From the IMG/VR virus record IMGVR_UViG_3300042887_005324, positions 1 to 64,000 of that record: 64,000 nucleotides of DNA; one strand, 5' to 3'. Every line of letters begins with the position of its first letter. Within the stretch, counting starts at the first letter, position 1. The translations under genes were made by a program, and so were the position numbers. The notes beneath the pieces are model-generated. The model was not told the DNA's origin, searched no databases, and saw nothing but the letters and a program-made list of their open reading frames with translations. Shown one piece after another: positions 11,791 to 63,519 of the stretch. The DNA is from a virus.

Positions 11791-12129
11791 ATGAGTGACA
11801 CTAAAATCAAAAAATTCAAAGAATTATCACAGGATGTCGAAAAGAAAGAATTGGAAATTGAATTTTCAAGAGTCAAGTCCGGTGAGTTTGAGATTGAGTC
11901 TATAATTGATGTTTTTCACGATCCAAAGGATATTAAAGAAAACTTTATAGGTATGCAATCTGATCTAAGTAAGAAAGATCTTAAAAGAGGTGATGTTATT
12001 TACATAACCGCTATGATAAAGAAAGCTGGTCACTCTATGACATCACCTGCTACACAAGCAGTATTGAAACTAAGAATAGTTGATATTTATCAAGGTTTGT
12101 CTTATTTAAGTAAAGTAATAAACAATTAA
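11791..12129 (+). CDS. Hypothetical protein with a capsid-targeting-like leader
   Basis: TTAATATATA at 11775-11784; N-terminus KIKKFKEL. Confidence 0.65.
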   Translation: MSDTKIKKFKELSQDVEKKELEIEFSRVKSGEFEIESIIDVFHDPKDIKENFIGMQSDLSKKDLKRGDVIYITAMIKKAGHSMTSPATQAVLKLRIVDIYQGLSYLSKVINN

Positions 12130-12130
12130 T

Positions 12131-12523
12131 ATGAAATATATTAAATCATTTAACGAGTCTAATAAATCTAATAAACCAAACATTAAAAAATTAGATATAG
12201 ATGGATTTTTAGTTTTCATGGGTAGAGATGCTTTATCTAATGATTACTTGACTTTTGAAGTTGCTGATAATGAAGATTATTGGATGCATGCAAAAGGAGT
12301 ACCTGGTTCACATGTTGTGATCAGGGTAGATAGTAAGATACCCGGATTGGAAACAATTAAAAAGGCTGCAAAATTAGCAGCAAAGAACTCAAAATCTTCT
12401 GATGAGCAAGTTAATGTGGTTTATTGTAAAAGAAAGTTCGTGAAAAAAGAACCAGGAATGAATGTTGGTCAAGTTAAGGTAGATTATACAAATAGCTATG
12501 AAATAACTGTTTCTAAAAATTAA
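12131..12523 (+). CDS. Stand-alone NFACT-R (DUF814) RNA-binding domain protein
   Basis: GRDALSNDYLT...DYWMHAKGVPGSHVVI...AAKLAAKNSK...V.Y...KFVKK..G...GQV. Confidence 0.88.
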   Translation: MKYIKSFNESNKSNKPNIKKLDIDGFLVFMGRDALSNDYLTFEVADNEDYWMHAKGVPGSHVVIRVDSKIPGLETIKKAAKLAAKNSKSSDEQVNVVYCKRKFVKKEPGMNVGQVKVDYTNSYEITVSKN

Positions 12524-12535
12524 TATATAACTTTA

Positions 12536-13912
12536 ATGAAAAAGACTTATTTTACCCCTGGTGTTGTTGAGATTTTTAATAAATTAAAAAGTGCACCAGC
12601 ATTCAAAGAATTGATTCTGAAGTTAGAAGAAGCAACTAAATTACCTGGTGATAAAATTGAATTTTCCGTAAGTAAATATGACCTTTCAAAACCTATTATC
12701 AAGAATATTTTAGGACCAGACGCATTTAGTGATAGTTTGATAGATGAGTTTATGAGAACTTTCAAGTTCAAAGTAGATGACATTGATAGAGGATATAAAT
12801 CAACTACAACCTATACGTCATCAGCAACAACTGGAAGTGCACCTTTCAAGAAAACTGTTAGCCAACCAGCTAAACCTCAAAGAATTTTCAAAGAAGAAGA
12901 TTATATCACACCAAGAGAATTTAAATTTGAACCCAATAATATTAGAGAGACATTTATTTCACTAGTCACTGAAACTTATCCTATGGGACATGAGGATGAG
13001 GTTGTTAAATATATCACACCTGGTCTAAAAAAAGACCAACATGGAAATTACTATACTATTATTGGAGATTCCGACACATCTTTTACTTGTCATTTAGATA
13101 CTGCTTCTAGAACTAAAGAAAAGATTAAATTAGTTCAGTATAAAAAAGATGGACAAGATTTCATAATGAGTGATGGTACCACTATTTTAGGAGCTGATGA
13201 TAAATCCGGTGTTGCTATATTGATGTATATGATACATCATAATGTACCAGGTGTTTATTGGTTCTTCATGGGTGAAGAAAGAGGCGGTGTTGGTTCAGGA
13301 AAAGTTGCTAATGATATTGAAAGTTATCCTTTTATGTCAAAAATTAAGAAAATGGTTTCATTCGACAGAAGAAACTATTATTCAGTAATCACATCACAAT
13401 TTGGAACTGTTTGTTGTTCAAATGAATTTGGTGATTCTTTGTGTAAAGAACTAAATAAGAGTGGATTAAAATTAAATTTAGATCCAACTGGTGTTTTTAC
13501 GGATTCTGCTAACTTTATAGATATTATACCAGAGTGTACGAATGTTTCAGTTGGTTATTTTAATGAACACACTTCTGAAGAGCTACAAAATATTACATAT
13601 TTAGAGAGATTAGCAAAAGCATGTGTTGCATGTGACTGGGATAAACTAGCTATTAAAAGAAAAGTAGGATTTGATGAGGATATCAAAAGTAAATATTTTA
13701 GATTGATCAAACAATTCAATAGAACTGTATTCTTTAACAAAGACTCTATAAAAGGCGTTGACGGTAAATTATTAATCAATTTAGAAGTTGATAGTAGCGA
13801 TCCTGATCATTTATATGAAGATTTAACATCATTACAAAAACTATTTTCACAACATAGATTAGATCCAGATATTTTGTTTGAAGGTGATAAAATAAAAATT
13901 GAACTTACATAA
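12536..13912 (+). CDS. M28/M20-like zinc peptidase (paralogue 2) with N- and C-terminal extensions
   Basis: HLDT, LGADDKSG, GEERG, SFDRR, TDSA, NVSVGYFNEH; clear homology to 4757-5836. Confidence 0.85.
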   Translation: MKKTYFTPGVVEIFNKLKSAPAFKELILKLEEATKLPGDKIEFSVSKYDLSKPIIKNILGPDAFSDSLIDEFMRTFKFKVDDIDRGYKSTTTYTSSATTGSAPFKKTVSQPAKPQRIFKEEDYITPREFKFEPNNIRETFISLVTETYPMGHEDEVVKYITPGLKKDQHGNYYTIIGDSDTSFTCHLDTASRTKEKIKLVQYKKDGQDFIMSDGTTILGADDKSGVAILMYMIHHNVPGVYWFFMGEERGGVGSGKVANDIESYPFMSKIKKMVSFDRRNYYSVITSQFGTVCCSNEFGDSLCKELNKSGLKLNLDPTGVFTDSANFIDIIPECTNVSVGYFNEHTSEELQNITYLERLAKACVACDWDKLAIKRKVGFDEDIKSKYFRLIKQFNRTVFFNKDSIKGVDGKLLINLEVDSSDPDHLYEDLTSLQKLFSQHRLDPDILFEGDKIKIELT

Positions 13913-13913
13913 T

Positions 13914-14378
13914 ATGAACTTGAAGAGATTTAAACAACTATTACAAGAAGATCGAGAAGGTTTTGATGATATTTATGATGATGATTTTTATTATGGTGAT
14001 GAAGATGAAGAGTCTTTATATGATAAGGATGCCATGGATATGGACGATGATGATGAATATGTAGGTGATACTGAAGTTCTTGAAAATCTAGCTACATTAA
14101 TTAGAAAAATGATTCAAACTGCTGGGATTAGTGATTATTATGTAACAACGAATAATTATGATATTAGTATACAATTTGTTTTCAATAAAACAGAAAAACT
14201 AAGTAGAATATTGAAAGTCATGGGATTGTTAAAAAAATTATACACTGATACACTGATACAATTTGAAGCAGATCTGGATTTGTGGGAAACTAAAGATGGT
14301 CGACCATTATTAACTGTTGATTTTTATTACAGTGATTATGTGAAAGGTAAGTATAATAAAGAAGACGCTCCTTTTTAA
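13914..14378 (+). CDS. Acidic hypothetical protein with a capsid-targeting-like leader (start revised to ATG 13914)
   Basis: MNLKRFKQLLQED; ATG 1 nt after the previous stop codon. Confidence 0.65.
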   Translation: MNLKRFKQLLQEDREGFDDIYDDDFYYGDEDEESLYDKDAMDMDDDDEYVGDTEVLENLATLIRKMIQTAGISDYYVTTNNYDISIQFVFNKTEKLSRILKVMGLLKKLYTDTLIQFEADLDLWETKDGRPLLTVDFYYSDYVKGKYNKEDAPF

Positions 14379-14434
14379 TCTAAACTTTTTGTTTTTTTCA
14401 AATAATATATATATCTTTGTAAGATAATTAACAC

Positions 14435-14783
14435 GGGGGTGATTAGTATTGATTCGTAGGATAAAGTTAGTTATGCAGGCATCGGAAGATATCTAACCGA
14501 TTAAAATATGGTATCAAACGCTTAAATGGCAAAACAAACGAAGTAGCAAGCCGTGAAGAATTAGTAGCCGCTCTACGCAACAACATCTTAAAGGTAAACG
14601 AAGTAGCTGTAGCTTAATAGGTTTCCAAACAGTAAGAACTCTGTAAAAGTTCCGAGAAAGTTGAAATTTGAATCTCGTTAAAATAAAATATTCTATTTTG
14701 TAAGTTTAGAAAAACTTTCTAAGCCTGTGAATGAATAGTTATCATTAACTAAGGAAGACCCGGTTTCGTCACCGGCATCTCCA
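14435..14783 (+). ncRNA. ssrA: tmRNA
   Basis: 5' GGGGGTG pairs with 3' CATCTCC-A, including the G3:U Ala determinant. T-arm CCGGT-TTCGTC-ACCGG. Tag ORF 14528-14617 is GKTNEVASREELVAALRNNILKVNEVAVA*. CCA is not encoded. TATCTTTG promoter at 14412-14419. Confidence 0.92.
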
Positions 14784-14787
14784 CTAA

Positions 14788-14820
14788 CAAAAACTCAACC
14801 AAATGGTTGAGTTTTTTTTT
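14788..14820 (+). terminator. Terminator after tmRNA
   Basis: AAAAACTCAACCA-AA-TGGTTGAGTTTTTTTT. Confidence 0.85.
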
Positions 14821-14865
14821 TATTCAATTTAAATTTGATAGTTAATTAGATCAAACGAAAAAAAG

Positions 14866-14895
14866 AAACTTTTGATAGAGTAGCTTCTATAAATA
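14866..14895 (+). promoter_or_regulatory. Bipartite promoter AAACTT-N16-TATAAATA
   Basis: Identical hexamer, octamer and spacing at 36016-36045. Confidence 0.6.
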
Positions 14896-14922
14896 GGAAC
14901 TAAAATAAATATAGAAAATAAT

Positions 14923-16490: not shown

Positions 16491-16491
16491 T

Positions 16492-17362: not shown

Positions 17363-17790
17363 TTGCAATTGGATCGGATCACGCTGGATTTGAAATGAAA
17401 ACAGCTATTATTAATTGGTTAGAAGAAAACGAATTAAATGTTACTGATTTCGGACCATATTCAACAGATAGTGTTGATTATCCAGACTACGCACATTCTG
17501 TTGTTGGTTCGATTTTAGATGAAGATAATGTTATTGGAATTCTGATTTGTGGTTCAGGTAATGGTATTTGTATGTCAGCTAATAAGTGGAGAGATATAAG
17601 AGCGGCTCTTTGTTGGAATAAAGAGATAGCTTCTTTATCTAGACAACATAATAATGCGAATGTTATTTGTTTACCGGCAAGATTTATATCTATTGAAGAG
17701 TCTATTGAAATTCTAGAAACTTTTTTAGAAACTGAATTTGAGGGTGGTCGCCATGAAAAAAGAGTTGATAAAATTAATCCTTCTTTTTAA
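17359..17790 (+). CDS. rpiB: Ribose-5-phosphate isomerase B
   Basis: IGSDHAG, DYPD, GILICGSGNG, SRQHNNANV, FEGGRH.RV. Confidence 0.96.
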   Translation: MIAIGSDHAGFEMKTAIINWLEENELNVTDFGPYSTDSVDYPDYAHSVVGSILDEDNVIGILICGSGNGICMSANKWRDIRAALCWNKEIASLSRQHNNANVICLPARFISIEESIEILETFLETEFEGGRHEKRVDKINPSF

Positions 17791-19187
17791 CAGTCTGGAC
17801 AATCTAATCGACATTCTCCATCACAAGTTGTACAATCGTTTTTGCCTCTTCCTCCGCACTCATCACATTTTTCTTCATTGCCTTCATCATTTTTGATTTT
17901 TCCCGTGCCATCACATTCGTCACACTCAAAATCTCCCAATCCATCACAATTCCAACACTCAACTCTTCCATCGCCTCCACATTGATCACACGCTGATTCG
18001 TATTCTTCATATCTACCGTCTGTGTCATTCAATGTGTAACAAAAACTACTGTCTGGTTGATCAACTGAAAGTCTACCAGTCTCAGGTTCATAATATTTAA
18101 GAGTATCTAAATAAGGAAAATATTCCTCACCTGCTTTTAAATGAACGACAAGATCTTGATATATTATCAATTCTCCCTTTGGATCAATGGTTTCAGAAGA
18201 TGCGAGATAATTGTTATTTGGTTTAGTGTGCCAACCCATTTTCTTGGCATATTCTCTAAACAGGTGAACATCAGAATCATTGTGAGTGTATATCCTATCC
18301 ATGAAAGTTATTTCAGGTTTATCTAACTTCCATAAAATAGCTCTACCTTTTATCTTATCACCACTATCACTTTTAAGAATGACCATTGATACTTTATCCG
18401 GATTTTTTGAGTAAATATTAAACCAAAAAACAGGTGCAGAGCACATACAAGAATTGCTTAAAGTTCCTTTTGATCTTTCAAGCTCATAGGTTCTCCAACT
18501 ATACCATTCTGGTATTTGATTGCCTTTAACTACTTCAAAAGATTTGAAAATATCATTCATTTTGTCCCACTCAGATTTGTATAAATTTACAAATTTTTCT
18601 ATTTCAGTATCGGTAAAATTAAGTTTAGCAGAATTTAAGATACCTCTTATTCCTCTTCCGACTCTTATTTGTTGTCTGTTGAGTTTAAATGGTAGTTCAG
18701 AAACATCTTCGATGTTAACATTTCTTTGATTGATAACAGAAATACCACCTGGAAATTGAATTTTCAGATAAGTTGTGCCGGATACCGGTGATACAACAGA
18801 CTTTAAAACCTCTCCTTTTTCTGAATTGTTCGGTGTGTATGCTCTTTGTCCTATTGGTTCATATTCTAGAAGAGCAAAAATATCTTTATTTGAATCTGTG
18901 TGTCTTAGAATTCCACCACCACTTCCAGAGTAGTAAACAGTCTGATTTTTTTCTGTATTTAATAATTCTTGAGCTTTTCTATCTGTAATAAAACTAATTT
19001 GTTCTTTATCATCAGATATATCAATATAATTATTTGTAATACTAAGATCTTTATTTTCTAATTCACCTAATGCTTTTGCCACAGGTGATTCAATTTTACT
19101 TATTAAGTCTTTGAATTTTTTCGAAAAAATCAAATTTGATTCAAGTATAAGTGACTCAAATAAAAAATCTTTGTAACTTGTAATCAT
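17787..19187 (-). CDS. SCM-motif family protein (paralogue A) with a capsid-targeting-like leader and C-terminal DnaJ-type zinc finger
   Basis: MITSYKDFLFES; GTLSNSCM, GRAILW, FMDRIY, FPYLDT; repeated CxxCxGxG. Confidence 0.7.
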   Translation of the reverse strand: MITSYKDFLFESLILESNLIFSKKFKDLISKIESPVAKALGELENKDLSITNNYIDISDDKEQISFITDRKAQELLNTEKNQTVYYSGSGGGILRHTDSNKDIFALLEYEPIGQRAYTPNNSEKGEVLKSVVSPVSGTTYLKIQFPGGISVINQRNVNIEDVSELPFKLNRQQIRVGRGIRGILNSAKLNFTDTEIEKFVNLYKSEWDKMNDIFKSFEVVKGNQIPEWYSWRTYELERSKGTLSNSCMCSAPVFWFNIYSKNPDKVSMVILKSDSGDKIKGRAILWKLDKPEITFMDRIYTHNDSDVHLFREYAKKMGWHTKPNNNYLASSETIDPKGELIIYQDLVVHLKAGEEYFPYLDTLKYYEPETGRLSVDQPDSSFCYTLNDTDGRYEEYESACDQCGGDGRVECWNCDGLGDFECDECDGTGKIKNDEGNEEKCDECGGRGKNDCTTCDGECRLDCPDC

Positions 19188-20869: not shown

Positions 20870-20871
20870 AA

Positions 20872-21636
20872 TTATTTAAATTGTTTATCATAAGATTTTT
20901 TTCGAACATCCATAATTCTTTCAATATATCCATTTCTTCTTAATAGTTTGAAAACTAAATTTTCGGTAGCATATTCACCTTCTTCTTCTAATCCTCTTTG
21001 TCTACCTTCTTTGATTTTTTTCCAAACTTTTTTGATTTTACTAATCAACTTATCATAACTTACTCCTTCATGAAATTGATCTTCAATTTCATTTACTTGT
21101 AACATAATATTTTCAGCTTTTTTTCTAATCAAGTCTTCATCTGGTACAAAATCTTCTCTAACGGGTTTTTTTATCCACTCATCTTTCATTAATGAGAAAA
21201 CACCACCCATTCGACCAGCTTTAATACTTGACATCAAGTCTTTTTCGTCTTGAATAGCAACCTCAACATCGTATCCAAGTAGTTGAATATCGTGTTCATT
21301 GTTCCAAAGTTTCTTAGCGTAGTCTACAAGTTTTTCTACTAATTCGTAGTTCTCATCGATATCTGAGAAATTAATAATGATATGTAGATCAAAGTCTGAA
21401 TACTTTTCTGACCAATTGTAATTACAAAGAGACCCACATAAAACAATATCGACAACTTCATTACCCAATTCTAATTTTTCATAAAAATCTTTACCAATTT
21501 GTATTAAATTCTCACGAATTTCTTGATCTAAATTAAAGTTTGTCCAAATTTTAGAATTCAAATCATCTTTCAATCTAAAAGAAGAAATAGGTTCAAATTG
21601 AGCTTGTACTAAATATTCGTTGAATTTTATAAGCAT
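20872..21636 (-). CDS. DNA polymerase beta-family nucleotidyltransferase
   Basis: LCGS.....W...SDFDLHII (GS...DxD) plus a third acidic residue in YDVEV. Confidence 0.8.
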   Translation of the reverse strand: MLIKFNEYLVQAQFEPISSFRLKDDLNSKIWTNFNLDQEIRENLIQIGKDFYEKLELGNEVVDIVLCGSLCNYNWSEKYSDFDLHIIINFSDIDENYELVEKLVDYAKKLWNNEHDIQLLGYDVEVAIQDEKDLMSSIKAGRMGGVFSLMKDEWIKKPVREDFVPDEDLIRKKAENIMLQVNEIEDQFHEGVSYDKLISKIKKVWKKIKEGRQRGLEEEGEYATENLVFKLLRRNGYIERIMDVRKKSYDKQFK

Positions 21637-21689: not shown

Positions 21690-22952
21690 GTGATTAAGTC
21701 ATACTATGATTTCTTATTAGAGTCAATTTTATTCGTATCAGATGAACTAGAAGATATACTATTAAGTCTTGATGATAAAGTTGCAAATGAGTTTGTTGGT
21801 TTAATAAATCAAGATATTGAAACTCAATATAATGGATTAAACTTGACCAAGTCAAATGATAAGGTTTCTTTTTTAACAGACAGACAATTTCAGAATAAAA
21901 TTAAAAAAGGTAGTGGAGTTTTAGACCTAATCAAAATTGATACAAATCAAACATCAGTTGGTAGAATTGTTAGACAGATATTAAAAGATAATAAAAAAGA
22001 ATTTAGTGATTCTGACATAGAAAAATTTGTAGATAAATTTAAGGCTGCTTGGACAACAAGAAAGCTCAAGCAAGAGGAAAAGTCACCACTTAGATTAGTA
22101 AGTGGAGAAGAAATTAAATTCTGGTATTCTAGAACAAATTATTGTGAAGAAACATCAAAAGGCAAAGGAACTCTTGGTAAATCTTGTATGAGATATAGTG
22201 AGTGTCAAGATTACTTTAGTATTTATATTCAAAATTCAGAAGTTTGTAAAATGTTGATACTGACAGAAACAACCAATTCTGAGGAGTTTCTACGAGCAAG
22301 AGCTTTAGTTTGGACAACTGATAAGGGGATTTATTTAGATAGAATCTATTACACTGACTCATCAGAAATAGAGATTCTAAAAAATTACGCTAAAGAAAAT
22401 CTAAACTGTCAAATTTTTCATGATTCAAATGTATCAGTACCGAGAATTCAAGTCAATTTAACTAGTCCTACTGATATGTATCAGAGTTATCCATACATGG
22501 ATACACTTTGTTATTACTACACTATAAAAAAGACCTTATTCAATTATGAGGTAGAAGTTGATAGTCCAGAAGATTTACTCTATATTCAAGATACAGAGGG
22601 TGGTTACGAAAGACAGGACACATTATACTCTGAATATTTGGATGAACCGTTACCAAGAAACTCTGCTATTTGGTCAGATTATCATCAATCATATTTACCA
22701 GATCATAGAGTGAGATGGAGTGAAGAGTTTTCTTCTGAGATATTTGATGATGAAAGTGTTTATTCTGATACACTTGGTGATTGGTTACCAAGAGAAGAAA
22801 GTTCTCTTGTAGTCATAGATAAAGATGGAGAAACGGACTGGTTTCCTGATAATTCTGAAGATTTTAAATATGATAAGATAACAAATAAGTATTATTTGAA
22901 AACTTTGATGATTCAAGATGAAAACGGAGATTGGTCTCTAAAAGAAGAATAA
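21690..22952 (+). CDS. SCM-motif family protein (paralogue B) with a capsid-targeting-like leader
   Basis: MIKSYYDFLLES; GTLGKSCMRY, ARALVW, YLDRIY, YPYMDT; C-terminal (Y/W)S(E/D) repeats. Confidence 0.7.
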   Translation: MIKSYYDFLLESILFVSDELEDILLSLDDKVANEFVGLINQDIETQYNGLNLTKSNDKVSFLTDRQFQNKIKKGSGVLDLIKIDTNQTSVGRIVRQILKDNKKEFSDSDIEKFVDKFKAAWTTRKLKQEEKSPLRLVSGEEIKFWYSRTNYCEETSKGKGTLGKSCMRYSECQDYFSIYIQNSEVCKMLILTETTNSEEFLRARALVWTTDKGIYLDRIYYTDSSEIEILKNYAKENLNCQIFHDSNVSVPRIQVNLTSPTDMYQSYPYMDTLCYYYTIKKTLFNYEVEVDSPEDLLYIQDTEGGYERQDTLYSEYLDEPLPRNSAIWSDYHQSYLPDHRVRWSEEFSSEIFDDESVYSDTLGDWLPREESSLVVIDKDGETDWFPDNSEDFKYDKITNKYYLKTLMIQDENGDWSLKEE

Positions 22953-26523: not shown

Positions 26524-26682
26524 ATGAACGGATTAACTAATAGACAATTTGCACTTTTAATGGCTATCGAAGCTAGAAAGATAAAGTTTCAAGGTGGAAT
26601 TTATGACAATGCAGAGGATTTTTATAACTGGTTAGAAGAAGAAAAGAAAATCAAAAAAGAAAATCAAAATTCTAAGAATTAA
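26524..26682 (+). CDS. Small hypothetical protein (start revised to ATG 26524)
   Basis: MNGLTNRQFALLMAIEAR...AEDFYNWL; A-rich start context. Confidence 0.5.
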   Translation: MNGLTNRQFALLMAIEARKIKFQGGIYDNAEDFYNWLEEEKKIKKENQNSKN

Positions 26683-27343
26683 CTTTTATTCCTTCAAAAT
26701 CAATATCAGGGAGTTCTCTATTTACAATCTCTTTTACTTTATTCACCCATTTAGACTTGTCATCATAAAATTTAACTTTTGTGAAGTTTGTTGACTTTAT
26801 CAAATCTACAATAGTTTTTCCTTTCCATATAGCAACTCTATTACTTGAATCATTACCTAATGGGTAACAGAATAAACCAAAGTTAGGTTTTTCTAAATTA
26901 AGTTCATTTAGAGTATTAAGTATTTTGTCTTTGATTTTTACTGGTCTTCCAGTAACAATAGCTTTATTCTTGACTTCTCTATATAAGTTAGCTAAAACTA
27001 AAGTTTTCTTTGGTAGACTTATATCAGAAAAGTGAAACTCATTCGGTGTAATAAGATAAAGATGTTTATTCTTTTTTCTAACCCAATTTCCTTTTACTGG
27101 TAGAAGTTCATTAGGATCTTCGACATATAATCTACCGTTTTCAATCTTTAGATCGTCAATCGTTTTATCAACAAAGGATAATGATTTGTCTAGTAGATTT
27201 TTTAGTGTATTATCTTCTTTTATTAAATCAATAACCAAATCGATAAAACTAGGAGTGTCAACTAAGGTGTCATCAAAGTCAAAAATATAAAGAGTATCAT
27301 CTTCACTAGATTTGAACGAGTTATAATTATTTAGATATTTCAC
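26672..27343 (-). CDS. HAD-family phosphatase (RNA-repair/Pnkp 3'-phosphatase-like) with a capsid-targeting-like leader
   Basis: YIFDFDDTL, VTGR, K, FYDD; N-terminus MKYLNNYNSF. Confidence 0.75.
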   Translation of the reverse strand: MKYLNNYNSFKSSEDDTLYIFDFDDTLVDTPSFIDLVIDLIKEDNTLKNLLDKSLSFVDKTIDDLKIENGRLYVEDPNELLPVKGNWVRKKNKHLYLITPNEFHFSDISLPKKTLVLANLYREVKNKAIVTGRPVKIKDKILNTLNELNLEKPNFGLFCYPLGNDSSNRVAIWKGKTIVDLIKSTNFTKVKFYDDKSKWVNKVKEIVNRELPDIDFEGIKVNS

Positions 27344-31877: not shown

Positions 31878-32369
31878 TTAGTCTCTTAGACCTTTAGCAA
31901 TTGCATCTCTAAGTGCTTTTGGTAGTTTTTTCTGTTTTGGAGTCAATCCCTTTTCTTTTCTTTTCTCGATTGAATCTTCGATGGCTTTTCCTCTTTTCTT
32001 CTCATATCTAGATATTTTCTTATCCTTATTCAAGTCTGCCTTTTCTGGATTTTTAAGACCTGATTTTTTATAAGAAGTATTTTTAGCTTCGAAACTCATA
32101 TCTTTACCAGTCATGTCTTTCTCTTTATCATTTTCATCTTCATCATTACAAGGAACACATTCTTCTTCCTCTTCTTCCATAGGCATTCTTCCTGCTACAA
32201 CTTTTCTTAATTCATCTGAATATTCATCTGATAATTCAGAAGGAGTATAATCAATTTCTGAATCTCTTTCTAATCCATCTGCTCTTCCAGCAACTATTGA
32301 TCTTAAATCATTTGAGTAATCATATTCTTGATCATCTCTAAAACTTTCAAACTTTTTTAAGTATTTCAT
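31878..32369 (-). CDS. Probable internal head protein: capsid-targeting-like leader, acidic half, basic half
   Basis: MKYLKKFESF; repeat YS(N/D)(D/E)LR..VAGR twice; ADLNKDKKISRYE EF-hand-like motif. Confidence 0.65.
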   Translation of the reverse strand: MKYLKKFESFRDDQEYDYSNDLRSIVAGRADGLERDSEIDYTPSELSDEYSDELRKVVAGRMPMEEEEEECVPCNDEDENDKEKDMTGKDMSFEAKNTSYKKSGLKNPEKADLNKDKKISRYEKKRGKAIEDSIEKRKEKGLTPKQKKLPKALRDAIAKGLRD

Positions 32370-32386: not shown

Positions 32387-32560
32387 TTATTTTAATATTC
32401 GATCACAAGATGGACAGTAAATAACTGGTTCACCATTTTTTATAAAGAATTTTCTATCACACATACCAATACATCTTTTAAGATCTTTTGGAGGCTTTGG
32501 CTTTTTCTCTGGTTTATCAGACTCAGTGATAAAGTTTGTAAATTTGTGTAAGTGATTCAT
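32387..32560 (-). CDS. Small zinc-finger protein, 57 aa, with a capsid-targeting-like leader; absent from the ORF track
   Basis: MNHLHKFTNFITES...CIGMC...CPSC; downstream of the palindromic promoter. Confidence 0.65.
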   Translation of the reverse strand: MNHLHKFTNFITESDKPEKKPKPPKDLKRCIGMCDRKFFIKNGEPVIYCPSCDRILK

Positions 32561-32580: not shown

Positions 32581-32594
32581 TTAATATATATTAA
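32581..32594. promoter_or_regulatory. Palindromic bidirectional promoter TTAATATATATTAA
   Basis: Lies between divergent small ORFs; an identical 14-mer is at 54334-54347. Confidence 0.65.
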
Positions 32595-32595: not shown

Positions 32596-32745
32596 ATGAA
32601 ATTATATGAATTTTGCGATTTTATAGTTGAAAAAGAAGTTTTGAAGTTTCCAATTAAATTATCTGATAAATTACTAAGTGTTTTACAACAAATAGACAGT
32701 AAAATATCAAAAAAACTTATCGATGTAGTTACATACACAGAGTGA
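32596..32745 (+). CDS. 49 aa ORF resembling only the N-terminus of the SCM-motif family (possible remnant); absent from the ORF track
   Basis: MKLYEFCDFIVE...LSDKLLSVLQQIDSKISKKL vs FSKKFKDLISKIESPVAKAL and VSDELEDILLSLDDKVANEF. Confidence 0.55.
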   Translation: MKLYEFCDFIVEKEVLKFPIKLSDKLLSVLQQIDSKISKKLIDVVTYTE

Positions 32746-36062: not shown

Positions 36063-36782
36063 ATGACAATATCTTTAGAAAAGATATTTTTCGGATATAT
36101 TATTAAGAATAAAAGATACTTTGAAATTGTAGAACCCTTCTTCTTCAAAAATTCTGAAATTCAATTCGTGTATTCTATTATTAGAAGTTACATGATTAAG
36201 AATATTGAAGCAGAAGTACCTCATCCAAAACAAATTCTTGAAATGGTATCTCTCGAAGATCGAGATGGTGTTATTACCAAAGAAGTTCTTAAATCAATGT
36301 TGACCGTAAACTTTGGTGAATATGATGAAACAAATTTCATTATTCCTAAATTTAACGCTTGGATTCTTTCAAACAGATTAAAAAGTGGTACAGTAGATAT
36401 TATTGATGAAACAAGAAATCTAGACTCTGTTAATGATTTTGAAGAAGCTGTAATCGCAGCTAATAGAATCAAAAGCATCGTAGATCAAATGTCTAAAACA
36501 GATTTTGTTAATGATGATGATTTGGGTTCTGATTTTGATGATCCAGAACACCATGTGCAAGATTCTTCAAGATTCAAAATCAGATCAGGACTTGATACTG
36601 TTGATCATATGTTAGGTGGAGGATGGGATATTTCTACACTTAATGTAATAATGGCTCAAACTAATGGAGGTAAGTGTAGTTTTTCTGATACTTACATTGA
36701 AGTTCGTGATAAAAATACTAATGTTATTGAGAAGTTAAAATTAGTTGATTTTTTTATTCGTCATAGGGGTACTAACATTTAA
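36063..36782 (+). CDS. dnaB: Replicative helicase (T4 gp41/DnaB-like), N-part with a short split-intein N-half (36675-36779, 35 aa)
   Basis: SGLDTVD..LGGG, Walker A AQTNGGK|CSFSDTYI (intein block A), then stop. Confidence 0.88.
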   Translation: MTISLEKIFFGYIIKNKRYFEIVEPFFFKNSEIQFVYSIIRSYMIKNIEAEVPHPKQILEMVSLEDRDGVITKEVLKSMLTVNFGEYDETNFIIPKFNAWILSNRLKSGTVDIIDETRNLDSVNDFEEAVIAANRIKSIVDQMSKTDFVNDDDLGSDFDDPEHHVQDSSRFKIRSGLDTVDHMLGGGWDISTLNVIMAQTNGGKCSFSDTYIEVRDKNTNVIEKLKLVDFFIRHRGTNI

Positions 36783-44126: not shown

Positions 44127-44945
44127 TTATAGAGATGCTAAAAACATCTTAGCTTCTTTTTGTCTCCTTGTCTCGAGACCAGGAAATTTTTTATTTAAGT
44201 TGTAGTCTTTGATTGAGTCACCTGCTAATTTCATATCACCTTTCTTGATGTGTTGAATTATATCAGATTGTCTTAAACTACTTATACCAGAATTGAATGC
44301 TAAAGAAACAAGTGCATCAAACATACTTTGATTAATATTTACATCTATTCCTTTTGCTTCCCACTCCTTGAATATCCTTCTAACACCATCAGCCGCTTCT
44401 TTAAGATCTTCTTTTAGATATTTATCAGCCTGTGCTTGCGTAATTTTCTGACCCTTTCTAAGTTTTGTTTTTCCAACATCCTCAGCGTGTCCATATCCGA
44501 CAGTTACTTTTCCATCACCTAGTGTATATGCAGTTAAAACACAAGACTCTTCTTGTTTAATATGATTCCATCCAGCGTCAGATAATCTAAATTCGTAACC
44601 TGGTTTGAAGTCGTCTGATTCAGATGTTATTTGTTTTTTTGTACCAGACTCATTTTCTTTTTCTTGAGTCATCTCAATTGCAATTTGTTTATCTTCAGGA
44701 GATGCATCTGAGGAATTGATAATCTGTACAACATTTGTTATTGTGTTGAAAGCTAAAAGAGCACCAATCGCATATTTGATGAGTTTTCTTCTACCTGATT
44801 CTGATAGTCCTTTAAGTTTCTTGACTATATTGTTCCAAATGGATTTATAGTCGGCTGATTCGTTGATTGAAAAATCAATATATTCAATTGCTTTTTGAAT
44901 TATTAATTCTTCATTGTAATTTGAATAATTAGACAAGTATTTCAT
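44127..44945 (-). CDS. GH24 (phage lysozyme) muramidase with a capsid-targeting-like leader and a hydrophobic segment
   Basis: EE...AY..GDGKVTVGYGH, ITQAQAD, FDALVSLAFNSG, GLETRR.KE; N-terminus MKYLSNYSNYNEE...INES. Confidence 0.88.
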   Translation of the reverse strand: MKYLSNYSNYNEELIIQKAIEYIDFSINESADYKSIWNNIVKKLKGLSESGRRKLIKYAIGALLAFNTITNVVQIINSSDASPEDKQIAIEMTQEKENESGTKKQITSESDDFKPGYEFRLSDAGWNHIKQEESCVLTAYTLGDGKVTVGYGHAEDVGKTKLRKGQKITQAQADKYLKEDLKEAADGVRRIFKEWEAKGIDVNINQSMFDALVSLAFNSGISSLRQSDIIQHIKKGDMKLAGDSIKDYNLNKKFPGLETRRQKEAKMFLASL

Positions 44946-57090: not shown

Positions 57091-57816
57091 TTAAAATTTC
57101 TTTAGAACTTCTCGATTATAGTAATCTTCGAATCCTTCAAGTTGTTTATCAATACTGTCAGACTTATCTAAACCAATAATCTCATCAATCAATCCAAATT
57201 CTAAAGCTTCATGTGAATTAAACCATTTATCTCTTCTTGAAGAATCTAACATTTCTTCAAATGTTTTTCCACAATTCTTTGCGAGAAGTTTGAAAAGAAT
57301 GTAGTTGTACTTTTCAGCTTCGATTTGATTAATTCTCGTATCTTCGATTACACCGCTAGTTCCGTGACTTACTTGGTGAGTCATAACTTTAGAGTAAATC
57401 AAAGAAGAACGCTTTCCTTTTGTTCCTGAAGAAAGTAAAACTGAACCCATACTTGCACACATTCCTAAATTGACAGTTGCTACATCAGATGAAATATAGT
57501 TCATCAAATCGACAATACCTAGTCCACACATAACTGATCCACCTGGTGAATTGATATAAAGAGTAATATCTTTCTTTTCTACTGAATCTAAAAATAACAA
57601 CTGTGCTTGAACAATATCTGACATGTGTTGATCTACTGGACCAGAAAGCCAAATGATTCGTTCTCTCATTAATCTTGAGAATACATCAATCTGTGTCATA
57701 TTCAGTTGTCTTTCCTCTAAGATGTATGGGGTTAGACCATTTTCAAATTGATCAAGAGAAGTTGAAGATATTCCTTGACTTTTTGCAAATTTTTTAAATT
57801 CTTTTCCTAAGTTCAT
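57091..57816 (-). CDS. clpP: ATP-dependent Clp protease proteolytic subunit
   Basis: DVFSRLMRERII, AQLLFL, YINSPGG, CASMG (Ser), MTHQ (His), RDKWF (Asp). Confidence 0.95.
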   Translation of the reverse strand: MNLGKEFKKFAKSQGISSTSLDQFENGLTPYILEERQLNMTQIDVFSRLMRERIIWLSGPVDQHMSDIVQAQLLFLDSVEKKDITLYINSPGGSVMCGLGIVDLMNYISSDVATVNLGMCASMGSVLLSSGTKGKRSSLIYSKVMTHQVSHGTSGVIEDTRINQIEAEKYNYILFKLLAKNCGKTFEEMLDSSRRDKWFNSHEALEFGLIDEIIGLDKSDSIDKQLEGFEDYYNREVLKKF

Positions 57817-58410: not shown

Positions 58411-58659
58411 ATGAAATTTGTAAAAAAGTTTGATTCATTTATAAAAGAATCCACTGAGACGAAAGAAAGTCCAGTAATTACTCCACCATTAACTGAACCA
58501 AAAAGACCAGTTGCGCCAGATAAAGAAAAGATTGAAAGACCAAGTGTAGATCCTGATCCAAAAGCAGAAAAAAAGGTTGATGAATTAGATGTTGTTAAGA
58601 GATTTATTGCTGAGGTAAATGCAAAAGGTGAATCAGTAAAAAAATATTTAAATAAATAA
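58411..58659 (+). CDS. Small Pro-rich protein with a capsid-targeting-like leader (start revised to ATG 58411)
   Basis: MKFVKKFDSFIKES; TTAATATATA at 58381-58390. Confidence 0.65.
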   Translation: MKFVKKFDSFIKESTETKESPVITPPLTEPKRPVAPDKEKIERPSVDPDPKAEKKVDELDVVKRFIAEVNAKGESVKKYLNK

Positions 58660-58660
58660 T

Positions 58661-60199
58661 ATGTCCATTAAAGATTTTGATAAATTCTTTGAAGAAGCTA
58701 CAGTAAAAGGTAATCCTGCTTTTCCGGGTGAAGGTGGTAAAAAAGAAGGAGAAAGTCAATATCTTTCGGATATTGAAAAAAGAGCTAAAGAAAGACTTGG
58801 TGTTAGACCTAGTGACATACGAACAGGTATGATGCCTACTCAGAAAGAAATGAGTTTAGGTAATAGACTTGGTAGTTTACTAGAAGAGTCATTAAAATAC
58901 ACTGAAGGAAAAGAAAAAGAATTATCAGATTTAGCAAATGTAGCTTTCATGAGTATCTATCAAGAACTAATCAACAGATATGATGTTGAAGTAGATATTA
59001 AGCTTGTTAAACCTGGTAAAGTAAAACAATTTATGGATGAGTGTGAAGATTGTCAAGATACACCACCTGCAAAATTTGCTAAGGTTGTTGAACAGGACAT
59101 TATTGATGAAGTACATAAAAGAAAATTTGCTAACCTAATTATTCAAGGTGAGGCAAAAAATACTAAGCACATACTACACAGTGATGAAGTAAAAGAAGGC
59201 TTAGAAAATATTTATGGAAAAGAAGATGCTGAAAAGATTTTCAAAATTTGGGATGAAATGACAAAAACTGCTGATCAATTAGATTGGGTTATGCCACCAC
59301 AAGTCAGAGCAGATATGATGAAAAAAATGCCAGACGGTTTAGCTGGTGCTTGTTTTGTTGACTGGAAAAAGAAAGAAAAGACAGAAGAAGAAAAAGTTGA
59401 AGAACCAGAACAAGAATATCAAGAATGGACTGGAGAAGAAGACGAAGAGTCTATGTATTCTGATATGCCAGAAGATGAACCAATGGAGGTGATAGAAAGT
59501 ACGCCAGTACTTAAAGCAAGAGGAATAGATTTTCCTATGTTGTTACATGAGTCTGTTAAAGGATTATTTGAGATTTTGTCTTTAGGTGGTATACCAGAAG
59601 ATAAAGAAATTGCTGATGTGGTTTTATCAAATACCGGTATTTCAGATGAACCTGAAGATTGGGCATATGGACCAGAAATCGCAGCTGATTTAAGAGACTT
59701 TGTTAATAAATCAACAAGAATTGATGACTTTCCTAATGTTAGAGAAGAACTATTCAAATTAATGATTGATAAAAAAACAATGCCAACTAGTGAATTCTTA
59801 GAACTTATGAGAGGTATTTTATCAAATACAAGTGAAGCTAGACTTAAAGTTGATAGTTTGGTATCAAAGATTTGTGATAAGCTAAGATCTAAAGAAGAAC
59901 AAAAAATTGCTTATCAGAAAGAATTAGAAGAATATGAGAGAAGAAAGAAAGAATGGGATGAATATCAAAAAAGAATGAGTGGTATTCAAATGTCGGAAGA
60001 AGAAGTTGAAAAAGAAGAAGAGATTGATTACTCAACATATTCAGAGAAAGAAATCATGGATGAGATTGATTCAGCTCTTGATTCTGGTGATTATTCAAGG
60101 GTAGAAATGTTATCAAAGTATCTAAAAAATGAGAGTTTGAACATAGTACTTAGAGAACTAAAGTTGATCAAAGAATCTGTAAATTTACATACAAAATAA
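58661..60199 (+). CDS. Acidic hypothetical protein, probable internal head protein; C-terminal IDEAL-like motif
   Basis: MSIKDFDKFFEE; EIDSALDSGDY; LKNES and IKES sites. Confidence 0.65.
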   Translation: MSIKDFDKFFEEATVKGNPAFPGEGGKKEGESQYLSDIEKRAKERLGVRPSDIRTGMMPTQKEMSLGNRLGSLLEESLKYTEGKEKELSDLANVAFMSIYQELINRYDVEVDIKLVKPGKVKQFMDECEDCQDTPPAKFAKVVEQDIIDEVHKRKFANLIIQGEAKNTKHILHSDEVKEGLENIYGKEDAEKIFKIWDEMTKTADQLDWVMPPQVRADMMKKMPDGLAGACFVDWKKKEKTEEEKVEEPEQEYQEWTGEEDEESMYSDMPEDEPMEVIESTPVLKARGIDFPMLLHESVKGLFEILSLGGIPEDKEIADVVLSNTGISDEPEDWAYGPEIAADLRDFVNKSTRIDDFPNVREELFKLMIDKKTMPTSEFLELMRGILSNTSEARLKVDSLVSKICDKLRSKEEQKIAYQKELEEYERRKKEWDEYQKRMSGIQMSEEEVEKEEEIDYSTYSEKEIMDEIDSALDSGDYSRVEMLSKYLKNESLNIVLRELKLIKESVNLHTK

Positions 60200-60209
60200 A
60201 TATTACCAA

Positions 60210-62012
60210 ATGATATCAAATTATATTGACTTTAAATTAAATTTGAATGAAAATATTCAACAAGCTAAGACATTTCTAAAAAATAAAGCTTTAAGAGATA
60301 AAAAGGCTAAGATGGCTGAAGAAGGCGTTGATGTTGAGAAAGAAAAAGTTGGCTTAACACCGAACGAAGTTAGAGATGCTGAAAATGATCCTTATTTTTT
60401 AGAAATAAAGAAAATTTTAGGAGATGCTAGTAACTACGCATATGTTTTTACTAAGTTCTTTTTTGAAGATTTATCAGAACTCGAACCAGATCAAAGAATC
60501 ACAGACCTAAAGAATTTATTTAACACTCTAAGAGAACTTAGACAATCATTATCTTTGTTACCAATGCCTGTTGATAGATATTGTTCAGCTGCTGCTAATG
60601 AAGAAGAAAAGAAAATTGCTCAAGAAGAAAACAGACAGTATCGTAGTCCTTATGAAAGACTTGTAGACGATTTGGAAAAATTGAAAGGTAGTAGACTAAC
60701 TAATAAGTGGATTAGTCAGTTACTCTCTTGGCAAAAATCTTGGTTTGATAAGTTAACACCAGTAATGAAAGAAAAAATTGATGGTATAGCCTCAGCTTTT
60801 GATGAATTTGGCAAAGATTTAGATGGTAGCAAAGATGTTAAGAAAAACAAAGATCTTCAAGATTTGTTCTTCTTGAAAGTAAAGAAATATAAAACATTAG
60901 GTGAACTAGTCTCAGGAGCTGAAAATTATATTAAATCAGCATCTAATGCTAGTGCATCTAAATTTCTTCAAGCACTTTCAAAGGTAAATCAAAGGTATGG
61001 TGAAATTAATGGTGCAGAAGAAGTCTACAATCAAGATAATATCTTAATATTAGAGGTTAGATCATTTGTAGCAAACAGGGACTTAAATTCGAATACATCA
61101 CACTGTATTGCTGGTTCTCAGGGATCTTGGGATCACTATGTAGGTGATAATAAGTTTACAAAACAATATTATATCTATAACTTTAATTTACCACCATCTG
61201 ATGTTAAATCAGTAATTGGTATTACAATTGGTGAAGGTGGTAGAGTAACAGCTTGTCATACAAAAAATGATGGTGGATTTTCAAGTAATATCGAATCTTA
61301 CATGAAAGGTCTTGGTATACCTATGTCAGTATTGGCACCAATGACTAAAGAAGAAATTGAGAAGAAGAAGAAAAGAATGATTGCTAATCAAGAAATTGTT
61401 AAGCCTAAGTTAAGTTTAGAAGAAGTTAAGAAATATTTTGAAGAAGGAGCTGATCCAAATGCTAAAGGTGGTCTTCCACTTCAAAATGCAGTTAAAGAAG
61501 ATGATTATGAGAGAACAAAATATTTATTAGAAATAGGTGCTTATCCGAATGTCGGAAATGCTATCAAGTATGCAAAAAATCTTAATATGATAAAATTATT
61601 AGTTGATTTTGGTTCTCAAATAAATAATGAAGTATTTAATAGTATTATGACCGATTATGACGCAGTTGAATATGTTCTGAAAGCGGGTGTTGATCCTAAC
61701 TTTGAAAAGGGTTATCCAATCAGAACAGCTGCTAAACTAGGTGATACTAATATGATTAACTTACTTATTAAGTATGGTGCAGACATTAAAGAAAGAAGAT
61801 ATATGGTAGTTAAATGGGCTGTTGAGCACGGTAAGCTTGATGTGATAAAATTCTTATTTGAAAAAATGAGACAATTAGATGACCCAGCAGTTAAAGATCC
61901 ATCTACTAAAGATAAGTTCTTAAACGATTGGATCCATTGGTGTCAGACATCAGATAAAATAAATGATAATCAGAAAAAAGATACAGTTGAACTATTAAGT
62001 TCATACAAGTAA
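60210..62012 (+). CDS. PcfJ-like domain plus ankyrin-repeat protein
   Basis: LEVRSF.A...SHCIA...W..Y...YYI; ankyrin repeats GADPN, LQNAV, IRTAA.LG...LLIKYGAD; leader ...LNE. Confidence 0.65.
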   Translation: MISNYIDFKLNLNENIQQAKTFLKNKALRDKKAKMAEEGVDVEKEKVGLTPNEVRDAENDPYFLEIKKILGDASNYAYVFTKFFFEDLSELEPDQRITDLKNLFNTLRELRQSLSLLPMPVDRYCSAAANEEEKKIAQEENRQYRSPYERLVDDLEKLKGSRLTNKWISQLLSWQKSWFDKLTPVMKEKIDGIASAFDEFGKDLDGSKDVKKNKDLQDLFFLKVKKYKTLGELVSGAENYIKSASNASASKFLQALSKVNQRYGEINGAEEVYNQDNILILEVRSFVANRDLNSNTSHCIAGSQGSWDHYVGDNKFTKQYYIYNFNLPPSDVKSVIGITIGEGGRVTACHTKNDGGFSSNIESYMKGLGIPMSVLAPMTKEEIEKKKKRMIANQEIVKPKLSLEEVKKYFEEGADPNAKGGLPLQNAVKEDDYERTKYLLEIGAYPNVGNAIKYAKNLNMIKLLVDFGSQINNEVFNSIMTDYDAVEYVLKAGVDPNFEKGYPIRTAAKLGDTNMINLLIKYGADIKERRYMVVKWAVEHGKLDVIKFLFEKMRQLDDPAVKDPSTKDKFLNDWIHWCQTSDKINDNQKKDTVELLSSYK

Positions 62013-62040
62013 CCCCTCTAAAAATAGTATTTTTAGACCG

Positions 62041-62073
62041 ACACTCTCAAGAAATTGAGAGTGTTTCTTTTTT
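62041..62073 (+). terminator. Terminator
   Basis: ACACTCTCAA-GAAA-TTGAGAGTGTTTCTTTTT. Confidence 0.75.
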
Positions 62074-62121
62074 AAAGAATATTCAATTTATTAATGTAAA
62101 TGAGAAAGAGTAATGTAGATT

Positions 62122-63519
62122 CTATAATTTGAAATCTGTTCCACCTAAAGCACCATAATTCTTATCAAGTTCATCTTGAAGCTTTTTAACATTGTCTTGC
62201 ATAGATTGAAAGTAATCTTTGTATCCGTGTTCAGGAGCTTCTTTTTCTTGTGGTTTTTCTTTATCGAGTTCCCACCAGTCAAAATCTGGATCATCGTAGT
62301 AACCAAGTGGTGTCCAAGTAATTGTACCTTTATCATCGGTTTTCATCAAACTTGGTTTAGTAATACTTAGTCTATCTTTTTTATTAGATCTTATAAATAC
62401 TAAAGCATCTTTAGTGTATTCACCACCTTTATCTGCCCAGAATCCAAGTAAATCGTACATATTATCTTTAATAGTATTCATGTCGGATTCAATTTCTCTA
62501 AATGCTCTGTTGAATAGTGATTGATGTTCGTTCCATATCTCTCTTAGGGTAATTCTTTTACCATTTGAACTAGCAATTTTTAATTGATTATGAGCAGAAT
62601 CTAACTTATCGCCCCAATATCCACCAAACATAACCTGATCAGATGAAAATTCTCTTGGCATTTGACCATATTCATCTCTACTTATATCATATAGTAGGTA
62701 TAAACGAGAACATTTATCTTCTGGTGGTAATTTCTTGAAAATAACAATATAGAGTAGATATCTTGGAAAGTCTTGAATAAGTTCTTTAGTTTGAACTTCT
62801 TTTTGCTTACCTGGTAAATTGAATAGTTTTTGCCACCAATTCTTTACTTCTCGAGTTGTTTTCTTAGTTCTATACCAATTATATCCACCATAATAAGATC
62901 CTTTAGTGATATATTTTTCAATCCAATCTAAATTCTTTTTAAGTGCCATCATCCAAGGCATATCAGATGAGTATTTTATTGCAGCTTTATATGTTTTAGG
63001 TTTAACAGCCATTATTTCATTATCGTCATAAATAACATCAAATTCAGACTTATCAACAATAACATCATCTTCAAATAGAATATCCCAACCACGAGTCTGA
63101 TCACCCATTGTGTTCAATTTTCTAACATTCTTTTCAACTTCTTTAATTTCTAATTTATTCCAATCTTCTTTTGTAAAAAAGATAACACTGCAATTTCTAT
63201 CAGTTTGATTTTTGTTAATTACAAGAAATTTTAGTCCTTCAACATTAGATCTGTGTCTGATATCAGATACTGCCTCATAAAAGTTATTTAATCCAATAAA
63301 TCCAACAATATAATATCTTAAATAATATTTCTTATCAGATTTATTATATTTAGTATATTCTTTTTCTGATAATATTTTTTTAGTATCAAAATTTGGTAAA
63401 ATCCATTTAGTTTCACATCCTCCAACTTGACCTGGTATATAGGCAGTAATATCTTCTACTTTTTGAATAGTCTCGAGAACTTTATCATTAAAATCTTCAA
63501 ATAGCTTAAGATATTTCAT
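62122..63519 (-). CDS. Hypothetical protein with a PcfJ-like segment and a capsid-targeting-like leader (start revised to ATG 63519)
   Basis: MKYLKLFEDFND; IYDDNEIMAVKPKTYKAAIKY...W; ATG overlaps the upstream stop (TAATG). Confidence 0.6.
   Translation of the reverse strand: MKYLKLFEDFNDKVLETIQKVEDITAYIPGQVGGCETKWILPNFDTKKILSEKEYTKYNKSDKKYYLRYYIVGFIGLNNFYEAVSDIRHRSNVEGLKFLVINKNQTDRNCSVIFFTKEDWNKLEIKEVEKNVRKLNTMGDQTRGWDILFEDDVIVDKSEFDVIYDDNEIMAVKPKTYKAAIKYSSDMPWMMALKKNLDWIEKYITKGSYYGGYNWYRTKKTTREVKNWWQKLFNLPGKQKEVQTKELIQDFPRYLLYIVIFKKLPPEDKCSRLYLLYDISRDEYGQMPREFSSDQVMFGGYWGDKLDSAHNQLKIASSNGKRITLREIWNEHQSLFNRAFREIESDMNTIKDNMYDLLGFWADKGGEYTKDALVFIRSNKKDRLSITKPSLMKTDDKGTITWTPLGYYDDPDFDWWELDKEKPQEKEAPEHGYKDYFQSMQDNVKKLQDELDKNYGALGGTDFKL

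Follow-up and report, generated by a model that had tools for sequence, protein, structure and literature searches.

A short N-terminal leader shared by otherwise unrelated proteins of an uncultured freshwater phage: a putative capsid-targeting signal of the T4 type

Background

What does it mean when a lysozyme, an RNA-binding protein, an ankyrin-repeat protein and a ferritin-like protein of one and the same phage begin with the same kind of short peptide? The question is raised by a stretch of 64,000 nucleotides (the window), i.e. bases 1-64000 of a single 174,041-bp IMG/VR contig (IMGVR_UViG_3300042887_005324; 30% GC, CheckV completeness 68%, 176 called genes), the source of which is an uncultured large freshwater phage whose host-type promoters are those of Bacteroidota. 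A sequence-only reading of the window had proposed that about twenty of its proteins carry a T4-like capsid-targeting leader and are packaged into the head. The internal proteins IPI, IPII, IPIII and Alt of phage T4 have in common a capsid-targeting sequence (CTS) of ~10 residues (MKTYQEFIAE), which is removed by gp21 (Mullaney and Black 1996, as cited in PMC8442874, PMC3012670 and PMC5694885); they enter the scaffold core by means of the CTS, and a foreign protein that is given a CTS by fusion is packaged too (PMC3012670, PMC8442874, PMC5694885). The answer that we favour, with moderate confidence and on the strength of comparative sequence analysis, is that the shared peptide is a T4-style capsid-targeting and cleavage leader that has been greatly expanded in number.

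The nearest public relatives of the capsid protein encoded in the window are uncultured megaphage assemblies of 630-735 kb and, farther away, Lak phages and cyanophages. An aquatic lineage of Flavobacteriia phages related to the Lak and T4 phages has newly been described (PMC12619734) and fits the picture of the contig; N-terminal tags go unmentioned in that description, and in a literature search we found no paper in which capsid targeting is connected to huge or mega phages, or in which such leaders are reported for this lineage. For comparison, 80 related contigs (referred to below as loci) were retrieved via the capsid protein (65-77% identity), and one relative, G001 (464.6 kb, 98% complete), was retrieved whole.

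Results

The leader and its bearers

An amphipathic N-terminal peptide of 8-13 residues is present on 18-19 genes of the window and on 27 of the 176 genes of the contig (about one in seven), the bearers outside the window being seen on reading the N-termini of all 176 genes. The dominant form of the peptide is M-K-[YH]-[LI]-K-x-[FY]-E-x-F; a minor form, K-x-[FY]-x-x-F-[IL]-x-E-[SD], begins 2-4 residues past the Met and overlaps the dominant one. The gene starts on which the sequence-only reading relied all exist; two of them, 21690 and 27343, are GTG codons, and another, 32596, opens an open reading frame (ORF) of 49 residues that is overlooked by length-based gene calling. Most of its examples are strong leaders as well, those at 54331 (-), 54364 (+) and 55895 (-) turning out weak. 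In the list below the first eighteen lines are the strong leaders of the window; the last line is the part inside the window of a further gene with a strong leader. Scores refer to the position weight matrices (PWMs) described in the next section, and TAATATATA is a presumed late promoter.

11791-12129 (+): leader protein, 112 residues, right behind TAATATATA (11776-11784); refined PWM score 12.8; the L003 orthologue retains the motif
12131-12523 (+): leader and NFACT-R RNA-binding domain (residues 24-117; Pfam NFACT-R_1, 6.5e-15)
13914-14378 (+): leader and highly acidic protein, 154 residues; PWM score 16.0; leader-bearing orthologues in many relatives; absent from the sequence-only reading
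17787-19187 (-): leader protein, 466 residues, in a paralogue family with the genes at 21690 and 33695; the G001 orthologue retains the motif
20872-21636 (-): leader and probable nucleotidyltransferase, 254 residues; PHROG 36119; Atlas neighbours have NTP_transf_2 in 22-85% of members; leader conserved in the orthologue
21690-22952 (+): leader protein, 420 residues, GTG start; T4-like subclass, leader ending L-L-E-S; same paralogue family
26672-27343 (-): leader and HAD-like protein, GTG start; DxDxT-like motif directly after the leader; leader of the G001 orthologue is of the dominant form
31878-32369 (-): leader and acidic/basic bipartite protein, 163 residues; best match of the unsupervised PWM
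32387-32560 (-): leader and zinc-ribbon mini-protein, 57 residues (PWM and domain search)
32596-32745 (+): ORF of 49 residues, leader ending F-I-V-E, right behind TAATATATA (32582-32590)
33695-35950 (+): leader protein, 751 residues, paralogue of 17787-19187 and 21690-22952
44127-44945 (-): leader, then hydrophobic segment, then phage lysozyme domain (residues 130-264; Pfam Phage_lysozyme, 2.6e-28)
49079-50023 (-): leader protein, 314 residues, T4-like subclass (PWM)
55159-55656 (-): moderate leader and Dps/ferritin-like domain (Pfam DUF5856, 2e-13; PHROG 858, 4e-17)
58411-58659 (+): leader protein, 82 residues, Pro/Lys-rich, opening a conserved cluster of five leader genes (58411-64481)
58661-60199 (+): leader protein, 512 residues, no assigned fold (PWM)
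60210-62012 (+): leader and ankyrin-repeat protein, 600 residues (Pfam Ank_2, 5e-12); the G001 orthologue scores 11.9
62122-63519 (-): leader protein, 465 residues, closest match to the dominant consensus
63519-64000 (-): 3' part of a leader gene of 320 residues that starts at contig position 64481, past the end of the window

Enrichment over composition

A PWM built from 13 leaders of the window was scored on the 105 N-termini encoded in the unseen 110 kb of the contig, with the 99th percentile of internal sequence as the threshold, and 11 of them pass where ~1 is expected (p = 1e-8). With a refined PWM, 27 of the 176 N-termini of the contig pass, against 3.7 +/- 1.8 in shuffles that preserve the composition of each individual N-terminus; the corresponding counts are 46 of 543 against 10.6 +/- 3.0 in G001, and 83 of 1306 unique N-termini against 13.6 +/- 3.7 in the 80 related loci. 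Because the first PWM was built on examples picked with T4 in mind, motif discovery was also run unsupervised on G001 alone, by expectation maximisation (EM) with the N-terminal composition as background. It returned K-[YH]-[LI]-K-x-F-E-x-F on ~15% of the proteins (log-likelihood ratio 443, versus 165-182 for shuffles), and the resulting PWM, applied to the contig, ranks the examples of the sequence-only reading on top. Two other EM runs were discarded: the first unsupervised one, on the 176 N-termini of the contig, overfitted general N-terminal composition (lambda 0.71) and gave a PWM that was uninformative on T4, and in one that pooled the relatives the motif was contaminated by redundant orthologous N-termini of the protease and the capsid protein, so that the run on the single genome took its place.

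These counts bear directly on the view that AT-rich codons, and translation start constraints in a genome without Shine-Dalgarno sequences, produce the pattern as a side effect, or else that it is a recognition leader for a modifying enzyme of the radical-SAM type. K, F, Y, N, I and E do all have AT-rich codons, and Shine-Dalgarno sites are indeed absent before the genes of the contig. Nevertheless, the composition-keeping shuffles yield 4-13 leaders where 27-83 are observed, the offset of the leader from the Met varies by 1-4 residues, and in the Tenacibaculum phage pT24, of the same GC and host class (28.7% GC, Flavobacteriia host) and with the same type of head module, we found no enrichment (4 of 301 N-termini, 3-3.6 expected). 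Synonymous codon use in the leader equals that in the gene bodies; therefore, the constraint acts on the peptide and not on the RNA. As for the modifying enzyme, radical-SAM (PF04055) had no match in the contig or in G001, and it matched in 14 of 14 control genomes. Together these results largely refute both versions, which we consider the least probable of all readings weighed here: by the shuffles, the held-out genes, the relatives and pT24, the leader is enriched beyond what the K/F-rich N-termini of an AT-rich genome provide.

Conservation and the glutamate signature

The presence of a leader is conserved between orthologues, with counts of 9/9/4/77 among the 99 reciprocal best hits of the contig and G001 (p = 1.4e-5), and in most of the formal losses the pattern is still visible by eye. 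Orthologues swap between the dominant and the minor form, an argument for treating both as a single functional class. In G001 the five-gene leader cluster (58411-64481) has a syntenic counterpart at 210-215 kb, in which all the leaders are retained.

A database search with the NFACT-R protein (12131-12523) gave 672 close homologues. In an alignment of 109 of these the leader Phe is F in 102 and Y in 7, and the leader Glu is present in 109 of 109, i.e. it is as conserved as the glycines of the domain itself; the residue that follows it is only S, G or A. At a wider scale, 58% of 236 leaders have a Glu 1-3 residues past the second aromatic residue (19% of other N-termini), with mostly F, L or I two residues before it and most often S after it; the predicted leader length is 10-13 residues. 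Judged from these patterns, the leader ends in a putative site of the prohead-protease type (hydrophobic-x-Glu, followed by a small residue).

The proteins behind the leader

In an all-versus-all BLASTP comparison of the bearers, a single paralogue family was found (17787-19187, 21690-22952, 33695-35950 and 90082-91059) and no other similarity, so that the bearers are unrelated, as had been proposed, except for these four. Every recognised domain (NFACT-R, lysozyme, DUF5856/Dps-like, ankyrin, zinc ribbon, Acb1, NUDIX) begins after the leader, and by these sequence data the leader is a modular unit, present clade-wide and conserved in orthologues. The NFACT-R, lysozyme, ankyrin and ferritin (Dps/ferritin-like) labels of the sequence-only reading agree with the Pfam and PHROG matches. 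Its nucleotidyltransferase label (20872-21636) is a lead from Atlas neighbours with NTP_transf_2, and its HAD label (26672-27343) comes from the DxDxT-like motif, Pfam giving no HAD support; PDB sequence searches with these two proteins found nothing. For the protein of 512 residues (58661-60199) an Atlas search gave no usable match, and in tblastn the matches were two uncultured megaphage records only, with no cultured model found. Two bearers outside the window add to the range of functions:

contig 169428-169961 (+) (L136:9428-9961): leader and 2H phosphoesterase of the Acb1 family, directed against the cyclic-oligonucleotide-based anti-phage signalling system (CBASS) (Pfam Acb1, E 1.5e-10, above the curated cut-off)
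contig 96600-97166: leader and NUDIX protein (domain search)

The Acb1-like bearer is a candidate for a pre-packaged counter-defence enzyme, and the Acb1-family, NUDIX, lysozyme and Dps-like proteins fit a takeover or anti-defence kit.

The nature of these proteins is what separates injected effectors from a sub-variant of the reading that we favour, in which the leader proteins do enter the prohead but are core or assembly accessories that are degraded, or that act inside the head in DNA condensation or head stability, and are not injected. T4 offers a precedent, its gp22, gp67, gp68 and gp21, with leader-like N-termini, being core proteins that are destroyed (PMC5694885); the Dps-like and acidic bearers could aid DNA packing, and several bearers have extra internal hydrophobic-x-E sites. 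On the other hand, the bearers with an Acb1-family phosphodiesterase, NUDIX, nucleotidyltransferase, lysozyme or ankyrin domain lack an obvious role in a closed head and fit host-directed functions like those of T4 Alt and IPI, and we give the accessory role a low probability.

Several features of individual bearers and of their neighbours are worth recording. Long stretches rich in Asp, Glu and Tyr directly follow the leader in 13914-14378 (+) and 31878-32369 (-); they are possibly DNA mimics or scaffold-like acidic cores. In the lysozyme bearer (44127-44945) a transmembrane-like hydrophobic segment (~residues 55-77) lies between leader and catalytic domain, a feature with which an ejection protein of phage SPN3US has also been described; an orthologue of this bearer was not found in five larger relatives. 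Next to the acidic leader gene lies a gene for a peptidase-like protein of 458 residues (12536-13912), and in one relative (L064:12484-14328 (+)) the two are merged into an ORF of 614 residues in which the leader motif is the internal joint (~residue 477), which is either a natural fusion at the presumed cleavage site or an assembly error. The peptidase-like gene belongs to a trio of paralogues (4757-5836 (-), 12536-13912 (+) and contig 91289-92407 (-)) with a common core of ~250 residues, 44-59% identity and a metallopeptidase-like motif rich in His and Asp; Pfam searches with 4757-5836 and with 12536-13912 found nothing.

The head module

Two ORFs at the start of the window belong to the head module:

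2-502 (+): last 166 residues of a prohead protease-scaffold fusion that is truncated by the contig end; alignable with the C-terminus of the ~700-residue ORF that precedes the capsid gene in relatives
589-2349 (+): major capsid protein, T4 gp23 family (Pfam Gp23, E 2.9e-24)

The gene order in relatives is a portal gene of the T4 type (gp20-type, Pfam 1.9e-57), two small genes, an ORF of ~700 residues and the capsid gene. By tblastn, residues 23-169 of the ~700-residue ORF are homologous to gp21 prohead proteases annotated in 776 phage records (for cultured phages the E values reach 1e-16), and they contain an invariant His74 and Ser129/130, 55-56 residues apart. The remainder is the scaffold, i.e. 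8-13 (median 11) tandem 15-residue units of type NIAYSEYIAENLD, each with an I/L-A-E site, followed by an acidic stretch rich in Glu, Met and Pro. The fusion is seen in L008:7804-9915 and as the same gene in 74 related loci. The capsid protein itself is on the contig, and portal, protease, scaffold and capsid protein are all present in relatives with a capsid protein 65-77% identical, from which we infer that this phage would have the protease as well.

The capsid protein has a propeptide at its N-terminus that is strongly conserved in an alignment of 54 relatives, with V-L-E|N and I-N-E|N as candidate cleavage sites. A hydrophobic residue, any residue and Glu, then Asn or Ser, recur at the protease N-terminus, twice in the capsid propeptide and in every scaffold unit. 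The ORF at 2-502 contains five x-N-E sites where 0.68 are expected (p = 6e-4), and with the I-N-E|N of the capsid propeptide this bears out the earlier remark that N-E sites recur in the scaffold and the capsid N-terminus.

The repeats are also relevant to the view that the leader is an amphipathic helix that binds the inner membrane and gathers late proteins there for prohead and lysis assembly, with neither cleavage nor packaging. Lys and aromatic residues spaced i, i+3/4 are as in in-plane membrane anchors, the lysozyme bearer has a hydrophobic segment as well, and T4-type proheads assemble on the membrane (PMC5694885). The motif recurs, however, in soluble scaffold repeats and is carried by evidently soluble enzymes; the leader is very short, and the conserved Glu and further acidic or polar positions lie within and just past the helix. 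We regard membrane binding as very unlikely.

Association with a presumed late promoter

The motif TAATATATA has 20 sites in the window, among which:

11776-11784 (+): TAATATATA site, presumed late promoter

It lies within 70 nucleotides upstream of forty genes, including all giant structural genes (1000-2300 residues). Since it also heads these large virion genes, it is most likely a late promoter, its lateness being deduced from the company it keeps. The sequence-only reading held that most leaders follow this motif directly or within an operon. Window counts agree: of the 18 leader genes, as curated by N-terminal sequence, 16 either follow TAATATATA immediately or belong to a unit that it heads, compared with 14 of 53 others (p = 4e-6). 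Over the whole contig, with leaders called by PWM, the link is modest (16 of 27 versus 54 of 150, p = 0.02). A second motif, the Bacteroidota-type TAnnTTTG box, is found 12-30 nucleotides upstream of ~20 genes, e.g. 4003-4521 (-), 4757-5836 (-) and 36063-36782 (+). These genes have neither TAATATATA nor a leader and are probably an early class that is transcribed by the host polymerase.

The main rival to capsid targeting is that the tag addresses its proteins to something else than the prohead core. It could be recognised by the phage's own Clp machinery, as a degron or docking site by which the turnover of a regulon of late proteins is timed, or by a phage chaperone. Basic and hydrophobic N-terminal peptides are the usual recognition elements of Clp and Hsp70, and a Clp protease is encoded inside the main cluster of leader genes:

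57091-57816 (-): ClpP homologue (Pfam CLP_protease, 8.7e-55, residues 41-214), with a weakly leader-like N-terminal extension of 40 residues (PWM score 6.4)

Moreover, ClpA-type ATPases and DnaK/DnaJ are reported to be common in a related aquatic lineage (PMC12619734). An address of this kind leaves unexplained, however, the invariant Glu with its small residue, the recurrence of such sites across the head proteins (protease N-terminus, scaffold repeats, capsid propeptide) and the link to the promoter of virion genes. Acidic residues within the motif, furthermore, disfavour binding by Hsp70. We therefore judge a Clp or chaperone address to be quite unlikely.

Discussion

A putative capsid-targeting and cleavage signal

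The capsid-targeting reading draws on a motif that is enriched, modular and conserved, on the invariant Glu, on the link to the presumed late promoter and on the T4-type head module of the lineage; for the leader proteins we infer docking, cleavage, retention in the head and injection. They would be synthesised late, from the TAATATATA promoters, and would dock by their amphipathic N-terminal helix on a scaffold core that is built on the portal by the protease-scaffold fusion. The capsid shell would then close round this core and the gp21-type protease would cut after the conserved Glu (hydrophobic-x(0-2)-Glu, then Ser, Asn, Gly, Ala or Asp, at ~residue 8-13), in the same way as it would cut the scaffold repeats and the capsid propeptide. 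The mature cargo would stay in the head and exit with the DNA.

Several results weigh against this reading. As to the protease, its gene is not on the contig, because the contig begins inside the fusion gene, and Peptidase_S77 has no match there; the protease domain of the relatives scores below the Pfam S77 cut-off, an AlphaFold model from 13 close sequences (predicted local distance difference test score 44) gave no confirmation of the fold, and a PDB profile search with the protease found no protease. As to the signal, 23% of the leaders lack a nearby Glu (within 8 residues of the second aromatic), and the dominant form often has its Glu straight after the Phe and a non-hydrophobic residue two positions before it, which departs from the L/I-x-E rule of T4. 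This form has just Lys2 and Phe7 in common with the T4 CTS, and its unsupervised PWM does not recover the T4 internal proteins. The top internal matches of both PWMs in G001 lie outside the scaffold, and the idea that every leader copies the scaffold repeat was rejected; likeness to the scaffold unit is confined to the strict leader subclass [FYW]-x-[DE]-[FYW]-[ILVM]-x-E. As to the cargo, the bearers are on average acidic (median isoelectric point 5.0 versus 5.9), whereas the T4 internal proteins are basic, and if all bearers were packaged ~15% of the proteins would be head cargo, far beyond T4. What stands of the proposed T4-like leader is a modular, conserved and promoter-linked peptide with a Glu and a small residue, in a lineage with a T4-type head module; what does not is likeness to the T4 sequence outside a minority subclass, and a protease on the contig itself.

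Implications

More tentatively, and with rather less confidence than we have in a targeting role as such, it may be that a lineage of uncultured freshwater phages of 250-640 kb that infect Bacteroidota pre-loads its capsid with dozens of proteins (~15% of the coding capacity, including Acb1-type, NUDIX, nucleotidyltransferase, phosphatase, muramidase, Dps-like, RNA-binding and ankyrin proteins), all by means of one short tag, which in its T4-like form would amount to one of the units repeated in tandem in the scaffold of the same phage. The tag would then be a predictor, from sequence only, of virion cargo in uncultivated phages.

Injected internal proteins are the first phage products that face the host defences, and those of T4 include a restriction-enzyme inhibitor and an ADP-ribosyltransferase. 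If the tag does mark head cargo, the T4 principle has been scaled up more than tenfold in this lineage, candidate cargo (including a packaged anti-CBASS enzyme) can be named from sequence in uncultured phages, and the question of the gene surplus of huge phages becomes a testable list. The tag could also act as a packaging signal for foreign proteins in such capsids, like the T4 signal.

Comparison with T4 and other known systems

When the 274 ORFs of T4 are scored with the PWM derived from the window, itself built on examples picked with T4 in mind, IPII comes out on top, followed by IPIII and then gp61.1; with the refined PWM IPI ranks high as well. The strict T4-like core is present in 13 of 1781 N-termini, where 3.8 are expected. 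In T4 itself gp23, gp24, gp22, gp68 and gp21 have short N-terminal peptides that end in L/I-x-E.

Gene 61.1 of T4 (NC_000866, 18966-19130 (-)) encodes a hypothetical protein of 54 residues that starts M-K-T-F-K-E-F-I-K-E, a near-copy of the internal-protein leader, and ranks first to third of the T4 ORFs with the PWMs used. By its N-terminus, this product may be an unrecognised head-targeted protein.

The leader described here and the T4 CTS have in common that a short N-terminal peptide (10-20 residues) is carried by otherwise unrelated proteins, with Lys2, aromatic residues on one helical face and Glu with a small residue at position 8-13, in lineages with a T4-type portal, protease and capsid protein. 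A minority of the leaders match the T4 core [FY]-x-[DE]-F-[IL]-x-E, as does the scaffold unit, [FY]-x-[DE]-[FY]-[IL]-x-E. The differences are that the dominant form M-K-[YH]-[LI]-K-x-F-E-x-F is not the T4 sequence, that ~15% of the genes are tagged here and a handful in T4, that the cargo is mostly acidic and includes proteins of 300-750 residues, that the scaffold, with its 8-13 tandem units of 15 residues, is joined to the protease in one protein, and that the host is one of the Bacteroidota and the system is known from sequence alone.

The heads of phiKZ, 201phi2-1 and SPN3US contain ~50 proteins, many of the internal or ejection proteins among them being cut after a Glu by a protease related to gp21 (PMC5694885, PMC10052503). 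The large head proteome, the processing after Glu and paralogous cargo with conserved extreme N-termini are points of likeness. The propeptides of those phages are, however, mostly 80-160 residues long with a site of the type S/A/G-x-E (PMC5694885, PMC10052503), they have no single short tag on dozens of unrelated proteins, and their capsid lineage and hosts are other ones. The principle itself is already known, capsid targeting by a short leader being textbook T4 biology and long propeptides being known in phiKZ-like giant phages (PMC5694885).

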